From NCBI GenBank assembly GCA_020633655.1, contig JACKDF010000002.1, positions 75,895 through 139,894 on the forward strand: a stretch of 64,000 bases of DNA, given 5' to 3'. The translations under genes were made by a program, and so were the position numbers. The DNA comes from Deferribacteres bacterium. Its GTDB lineage: Bacteria > Zhuqueibacterota > Zhuqueibacteria > Zhuqueibacterales > Geothermadaptataceae. Position 1 is the first letter of the stretch, and each line of letters starts with the position of its first letter. Below the pieces are notes generated by a model. It made no database searches. It was not told where the DNA came from and saw only the letters and a program-made list of their open reading frames with translations. This document shows positions 14,975 through 15,058 of the stretch, piece after piece.

Positions 14975-15058
14975 CCTGTTTTATTCATGCGTTGCGTGGT
15001 GTTCGTGATGGGCAGGGGATATCCCCTGCCCAATCTTGGTGTTTATGAATAAAGCAAG
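14975..15058 (+). repeat. Palindromic intergenic repeat family A, copy 1 (boundaries approximate)
   Basis: The outer arms cctgttttattcat / atgaataaagcaag flank a perfect 20-bp central palindrome, ggcaggggatatcccctgcc (15011..15030). Confidence 0.85.

Follow-up and report, generated by a model that had tools for sequence, protein, structure and literature searches.

Correia elements (NEMIS) of Neisseria are non-coding MITEs, that is, non-autonomous DNA transposons, of about 100-150 bp that are bounded by terminal inverted repeats (TIRs) and duplicate their target. They occur in one lineage as hundreds of mostly intergenic copies lying either way round, with no cognate transposase in the genome. 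The 84-bp repeats described here resemble them in these traits. Correia elements, however, make a 2-bp duplication (TA) and their repeats are 26 bp long, with an IHF site, whereas the present family makes a 4-bp NTAR duplication, has 15-bp repeats, is unrelated in sequence and belongs to the phylum Calditrichota. Elements of the IS1380 family, distant relatives of eukaryotic piggyBac (which duplicates TTAA), are recognised in ISfinder by CC tips and a 4-5-bp duplication. The present family fits this description with its 5'-CC…GG-3' tips and a 4-bp duplication in which TTAA is commonest, but the IS1380 transposase (NF033539) is absent from this genome and its genus, and the TIRs of IS1380 copies at the level of the taxonomic family are dissimilar beyond 'CCT'. 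The IS5 group and the IS701 family, with their MITEs, likewise produce 4-bp duplications, at a YTAR-type target according to ISfinder; IS5-group ends begin GG or GA, unlike the CC of the MITE, and no IS5, IS701 or DDE_Tnp_1 transposase was detected in the assembly by family searches. REP/BIME sequences and REPIN-RAYT systems are also short, abundant, intergenic palindromic repeats, and RAYT-like genes occur in the same genome; REPs, however, lack a duplication and flank RAYT genes, whereas the 84-bp element duplicates its target and has no RAYT association. RUP, BOX and ERIC of Firmicutes and enterobacteria are small structured intergenic repeats as well, some of them mobilised in trans by insertion sequences. 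RUP is mobilised by an IS630-family element and, unlike the present family, duplicates TA, and in this genome the IS630-like element has ends (TTATTAATKKGGCCATAA) unrelated to the MITE.

The repeats are very probably copies of a MITE, and thus plain selfish DNA rather than regulatory signals, because they duplicate 4 bp on insertion and lie in either orientation relative to genes. They constitute a new family within an already known type of element. The family is lineage-restricted, old, and shares its arms with larger sister classes. The window, the whole stretch of 64,000 nucleotides that was analysed, corresponds to C12:75895-139894 of this genome (G000). Its five copies, with the recognisable parts and flanks, are as follows.

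14975..15058, + strand: copy 1, a full-length 84-bp MITE (nhmmer E=7e-27; HMM match 14971-15064)
14975-14989: left TIR of copy 1
15010-15031: perfect palindrome of copy 1, GGGCAGGGGATATCCCCTGCCC
15044-15058: right TIR of copy 1
14971-14974 and 15059-15062: TTAA on either side of copy 1 (4-bp duplication)
25523..25616, + strand: copy 2, with right arm and core intact (HMM match 25543-25621, E=5e-17)
49842..49921, + strand: copy 3, 80 bp with small deletions (HMM match 49837-49926, E=1.5e-14)
49838-49841 and 49922-49925: TTCA on either side of copy 3
51152..51214, + strand: copy 4, left-truncated or degenerate, covering model positions 28-96 (HMM match 51151-51218, E=8e-12)
59844..59927, + strand: copy 5, a full-length 84-bp MITE (HMM match 59838-59934, E=2e-25)
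59840-59843 and 59928-59931: TTAA on either side of copy 5

The original prediction had reported five related copies at these places, and its coordinates are exact or off by a few bases. Most of the copy ends it gave hold, with the exceptions that copy 5 ends at 59927 and not at 59926, and that the left arm of copy 2 is degenerate and contains an insertion of ~10 nt; the left boundary of this copy is therefore uncertain, with a start probably near 25523. In copy 4 the left TIR is absent or unrecognisable. The five copies align across ~85 nt, and the window has three occurrences of their 29-nt core GATGGGCAGGGGATATCCCCTGCCCAATC (<=3 mismatches), as against 0.00 in 100 shuffles. The predicted layout is also borne out, with mutually inverted outer arms, a variable left segment that ends in GATGG, a central palindrome (perfect in copy 1) and a right arm. 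As had been described, all five copies are intergenic, in + orientation and upstream of a + strand ORF, which begins 31-191 nt downstream. The genes concerned were correctly named: they encode, in order, SIS/GmhA-like, SLAC1/TehA-like, CheW+REC (CheV), PIG-L and DPP-IV proteins. The spacer of copy 3 is divergent, with a DUF2961 gene on the - strand to its left and cheV on the + strand. Copy 1 is predicted to fold at -38.7 kcal/mol (z=-5.6), while the other window copies fold far less stably (z -1.2 to -2.8).

A hidden Markov model built from the copies was run in two nhmmer rounds over the assembly, a 90.8% complete MAG of 5.52 Mb in 87 contigs with 43% G+C. Because the sequence is close to a palindrome, many loci are matched on both strands, and the 345 matches collapse to 262 non-overlapping loci in 5.5 Mb, about 140 of them full length. 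Near-identical blocks are shared between contigs (C12:1-24000 with C87:227800-252200, and C17 with C3:73700-86100), probably through assembly or strain redundancy of the MAG, so the true number of loci is a few lower. The 84-bp unit, which is short and without coding capacity, has the order CCTGCTTTATTCATG-CAATGCTCAAAGTGAGCGATG-GGGCAGGGGATATCCCCTGCCC-AATCCTGGTGTTT-ATGAATAAAGCAGG and the consensus CCTGCTTTATTCATGCAATGCTCAAAGTGAGCGATGGGCAGGGGATATCCCCTGCCCAATCCTGGTGTTTATGAATAAAGCAGG; the modal length is 82 when taken between CTGC and GCAG. It consists of 15-bp TIRs (CCTGCTTTATTCATG / CATGAATAAAGCAGG, with a per-position conservation of 55-90% in 141 copies), asymmetric subterminal arms and a central 22-bp palindrome that is conserved about as well as the TIRs.

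The element inserts into a 4-bp NTAR target and duplicates it. No target-site duplication had been seen in the original prediction, a view contradicted within the window by the direct repeats around copies 1, 3 and 5; at copy 2 the flanks (TTCG and TAAG) have lost their match. Genome-wide, the 4 nt to the left of CCTG were compared with the 4 nt to the right of CAGG in 109 copies with defined ends. The flanks agree at 291 positions, compared with 218.8 +/- 7.5 in shuffled pairings (z=9.6). It is the variable positions 1 and 4 that carry the signal (z about 7.4 each), and z falls to about 0 when the test is offset by one base. Exact 4-mer matches were found in 25/109 copies, where 6.8 were expected and the maximum in 2000 shuffles was 15. 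The matched flanks are direct and not inverted (TTAG/TTAG, CTAA/CTAA, TTAT/TTAT, CTAT/CTAT), and therefore do not represent an extension of the inverted repeat. TTAA is the commonest target, followed by TTAG, CTAA, ATAA, CTAG and TTCA, and each of the preferred targets makes up <=1.0% of intergenic 4-mers (TTAA 1.0%, CTAA 0.3%, CTAG 0.05%).

Two reciprocal empty sites were found between this genome and a sister species, Calditrichaeota MAG CLD5 (G003). On contig C243 of G003 the filled site reads …TTCATTTCA/CCTGCTTC…84 bp…AAGCAGG/TTCAACAAC…, whereas the orthologous site in G000, at C4:26608-26611, is empty and reads …TTCATTTCAACAAC…; the flanks of the pair are 96% and 81% identical. The comparison is base-perfect, with TTCA/CCTG…84 bp…CAGG/TTCA in G003 and a single TTCA in G000. 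The reverse case is provided by window copy 3, the orthologous spacer of which, on G003 contig C703, lacks the element, and both species carry an element at a third locus (C56:68460 in G000, contig C197 in G003). Filled and empty sites in both directions, together with the common site, indicate that the family was active at about the time the two species separated and afterwards. The C243/C4 pair is the only base-perfect empty site. Two 20-kb element-rich regions compared with three congeners gave no further orthologous empty sites, as the spacers were too diverged to align, and the joined flanks of 87 copies found no paralogous empty site in G000.

The family has a narrow distribution. Among 40 relatives it was found only in the congener G003 (67% complete, 11 matches), and was missing from two other congeners and from every more distant genome. 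A 22-nt arm pattern, searched in one genome per GTDB species, matched G003 ('MAG: Calditrichaeota bacterium isolate CLD5') alone. The single match of a metagenome scan lay inside a long ORF and was dismissed as a chance match. A literature search for this repeat family or for MAG CLD5 returned nothing. The window also contains other families of intergenic repeats (~20459-20586, 20627-20726, 14576-14625, 18466-18502, 28891-28994, 47741-47830 and 51375-51440), which, unlike the 84-bp MITE, match many places in congeners G001-G003. In G002, repeats of the 18466-18502 type are regularly arrayed, every ~146 nt at C20:115221-115832.

The copies are old. Full-length copies are 60-92% identical to the consensus (median 77%), their mean pairwise identity is 64%, and only one pair exceeds 95% identity, probably owing to contig redundancy.

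An autonomous element was sought in G000 by TIR scans (<=3 mismatches), by pairs <=3.5 kb apart with matching duplications, and through orphan arms and contig ends, and none was found; four long TIR pairs that might have represented a parent insertion sequence were chance matches around ordinary genes. No parent insertion sequence with these TIRs was detected among the relatives, the GTDB representatives or the metagenome scan either. Absence of the parent from a 91%-complete MAG is not proof that it does not exist, and many accepted MITE families have no known partner transposase. The transposases that do occur in G000 belong to ISL3 (4 copies), IS630 (3) and IS256 (2), in addition to an IS200-like gene (2). 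The duplications made by these groups are 8 bp for ISL3, 2 bp for IS630, 8-9 bp for IS256 and 0 bp for IS200-like elements. The IS630-family element is present as three near-identical copies (C12:445930-446970, C1:545643-546683 and C56:393266-394306), of which the C12 copy adjoins one of the four ISL3-family transposase copies. It was considered as the mover and rejected, its aligned ends (TTATTAAT..GGCCATAA) being different from those of the MITE. Three other genomes from this taxonomic family encode IS1380 transposases. The TIRs of these IS1380 copies (CCTAAATTGAGCG…) are unlike those of the MITE, and the one clear end pair, CCTAAATTGAGCGATT…, starts with CC and is otherwise dissimilar; a copy in the same-family genome G008 starts CCTAAATT…. 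Since these TIRs are unrelated to those of the MITE, the enzyme family is a guess.

The 37-nt left arm and the 29-nt right arm of the MITE also bound larger elements of ~174, ~195 and 370-410 bp. The ~174-bp class has about 33 full-length copies, and exact 4-bp duplications occur at 12/29 elements of the 174- and 195-bp classes, compared with a shuffle mean of 2.4. The larger classes have a common inner inverted repeat, GGGGCTGTGTCAAAACATG…CATGTTTTGACACAGCCCC, and >=4 different palindromic cores are found between the same arms. Further MITE-like elements with the termini TARCCTGYTTTAT and differing cores were tied by the census to the 84-bp family. The 370-410-bp elements (C56:76481-76874, C3:23420-23829 and C3:72910-73276 in G000) combine the MITE arms and the inner inverted repeat with a G+C-rich interior of ~300 nt that has many hairpins, no Rfam match and no ORF. 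One core also occurs in the window without arms:

5581..5705, + strand: naked palindromic core of ~120 nt, GATGGGGGCTGAGTC…CGACATTTATGTCG…CGACATGAATGTCG…GGCTAAGCCCCCATC, with no recognisable arms

Elsewhere in the genome this core sits between MITE arms and thereby makes up the 174-bp class. About 16-20 armless copies exist genome-wide, three of them in tandem at C1:427177-427540.

The uniform orientation of the window copies, all on the + strand and upstream of + strand genes, had been taken in the original prediction to argue for a function at the RNA or regulatory level, such as a terminator or insulator. An element of this kind (a terminator, an insulator, an mRNA-stabilising hairpin or an sRNA) held in fixed orientation upstream of genes is very unlikely. 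Among 146 confidently oriented copies in co-directional spacers, 72 lie with and 74 against the genes (binomial p=0.93), so that the uniformity seen in the window is coincidental, with a probability of 1 in 16. Adjacent copies are co-oriented in 87/184 cases, and neither local GC skew nor the strand that most nearby genes occupy is linked to the orientation of a copy. Relative to a crude gene call (longest ORFs picked greedily; 4093 genes, 88% coding), the copies are essentially all intergenic; 16 matches have their midpoint in a called ORF, some of them both-strand matches of one locus, and all 16 are artefacts of ORF edges, over-extended starts or spurious ORFs of ~100 aa. Random orientation and random location, including inside genes, had been anticipated for a plain selfish MITE. 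Orientation is indeed random, but location is not, as genes are avoided, a pattern that a selfish element under purifying selection would show. The spacer types are occupied roughly as their lengths predict: there are 171 copies in co-directional spacers (about 171 expected from intergenic bp), 63 in divergent ones (about 54) and 17 in convergent ones (about 26). The shortfall thus falls on the convergent type, in which terminators would be anticipated. In co-directional spacers, the fifth nearest the upstream stop codon holds 52/142 copies. This skew could be read in favour of a regulatory role; it is, however, the same for both orientations and compatible with insertions there doing least harm. 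The strong fold of copy 1 and a slight excess of compensatory stem changes also speak for such a role. Compensatory double changes number 55 in the TIRs (35 expected) and 52 in the central palindrome (26 expected), but about 21-22% of stem positions are unpaired across copies and total pairing is barely above independence (1637 vs 1582 in the TIRs, 1176 vs 1138 in the central palindrome). Master-copy sub-lineages could produce such an excess without selection on RNA or DNA structure; together with the skew towards stop codons, it leaves room for some selection on structure or placement. The proposed terminator or insulator RNA found no support in Rfam (no match in the window at the gathering threshold, for copy 1 at E<=1, or for the larger classes at E<=0.1), and copy 1 contains no terminator-like or promoter-like site. 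Moreover, the copies are heavily diverged, and related species of the genus lack the element at the same genes.

The REP/MITE-like option of the original prediction divides along similar lines. Its MITE part is upheld by the TIRs, the 4-bp duplication and the empty sites in the sister species. Spread by a RAYT, an IS200-like HUH tyrosine transposase recognising the hairpin as single-stranded DNA, would suit a short, abundant, strongly folding intergenic nested palindrome, and RAYT/IS200-like genes do exist: there are 9 Y1_Tnp matches in G000, including several distinct RAYT-like genes of 155-158 aa. They are not associated with the 84-bp element, however. Traces of the element within <=5 kb are confined to a single Y1_Tnp gene and consist of two partial arm matches >4 kb from it, and three of five Y1_Tnp genes examined for surrounding inverted repeats are flanked by other REP-type palindromes (GCCCCNAAGGGGC, CGCCCTTTCAGGGCT and GTGCGACGCAC). 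HUH/RAYT chemistry, as in IS200/IS605 and REPINs, leaves no target duplication, and the direct 4-bp duplication and the base-perfect empty site are not its products, which makes this origin extremely improbable. Four RAYT-like Y1 loci (C67:163585-163923, C23:532818-533156, C12:223914-224258 and C87:168416-168718), 3/4 of them bracketed by their own REP type, indicate that the genome hosts multiple REP/RAYT systems besides the MITEs. It has also been considered that the central palindrome or the interchangeable cores bind a host or mobile-element protein, with the arms serving as the vehicle that spreads the sites. The several palindromic cores carried by the same arms, the armless and tandem copies of one core, and a central palindrome about as conserved as the TIRs would agree with this. 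The core is not conserved better than other parts of the element, though, no candidate binding protein was identified, and a deletion series from a larger parent accounts for the modularity more simply; binding-site spread of this sort is accordingly regarded as highly improbable. A broader but unlikely proposal is that the arms are a reusable 'shell' spreading unrelated palindromic cores, moved by an unseen transposase that duplicates 4 bp at TTAA/NTAR and acts on CC…GG ends (IS1380/piggyBac-like, or from a new Calditrichota family), the cores perhaps being functional cargo and not deletion remnants.

For a MITE, the preferred explanation of the repeats, the mechanism can be outlined. A cut-and-paste DDE-type transposase supplied in trans would have recognised the TIRs and made 4-bp staggered cuts at the target. 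Its gene, which is not in the assembly, may have been lost or may lie in an unassembled part of the genome. Judging from the ISfinder table, the IS1380 family would be the best fit to the 'CC…GG' tips and the 4-bp duplication, with IS701-like and IS5-like enzymes as possible alternatives. Old copies would be decaying more or less neutrally, and should copies affect neighbouring genes, for example by forming hairpins in transcripts, this would be a local side effect.

Only two parts of this system, the missing transposase and the interchangeable cores, could lead to something new. The finding adds a well-defined MITE family, with its ends, target site, copy number and size classes, to the poorly studied uncultured phylum Calditrichota. 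The family accounts for the majority of conspicuous intergenic palindromes in this genome and should be masked when the genome is searched for RNA structures or regulatory motifs. Whether an individual site is filled or empty is usable as a marker between closely related Calditrichota populations.
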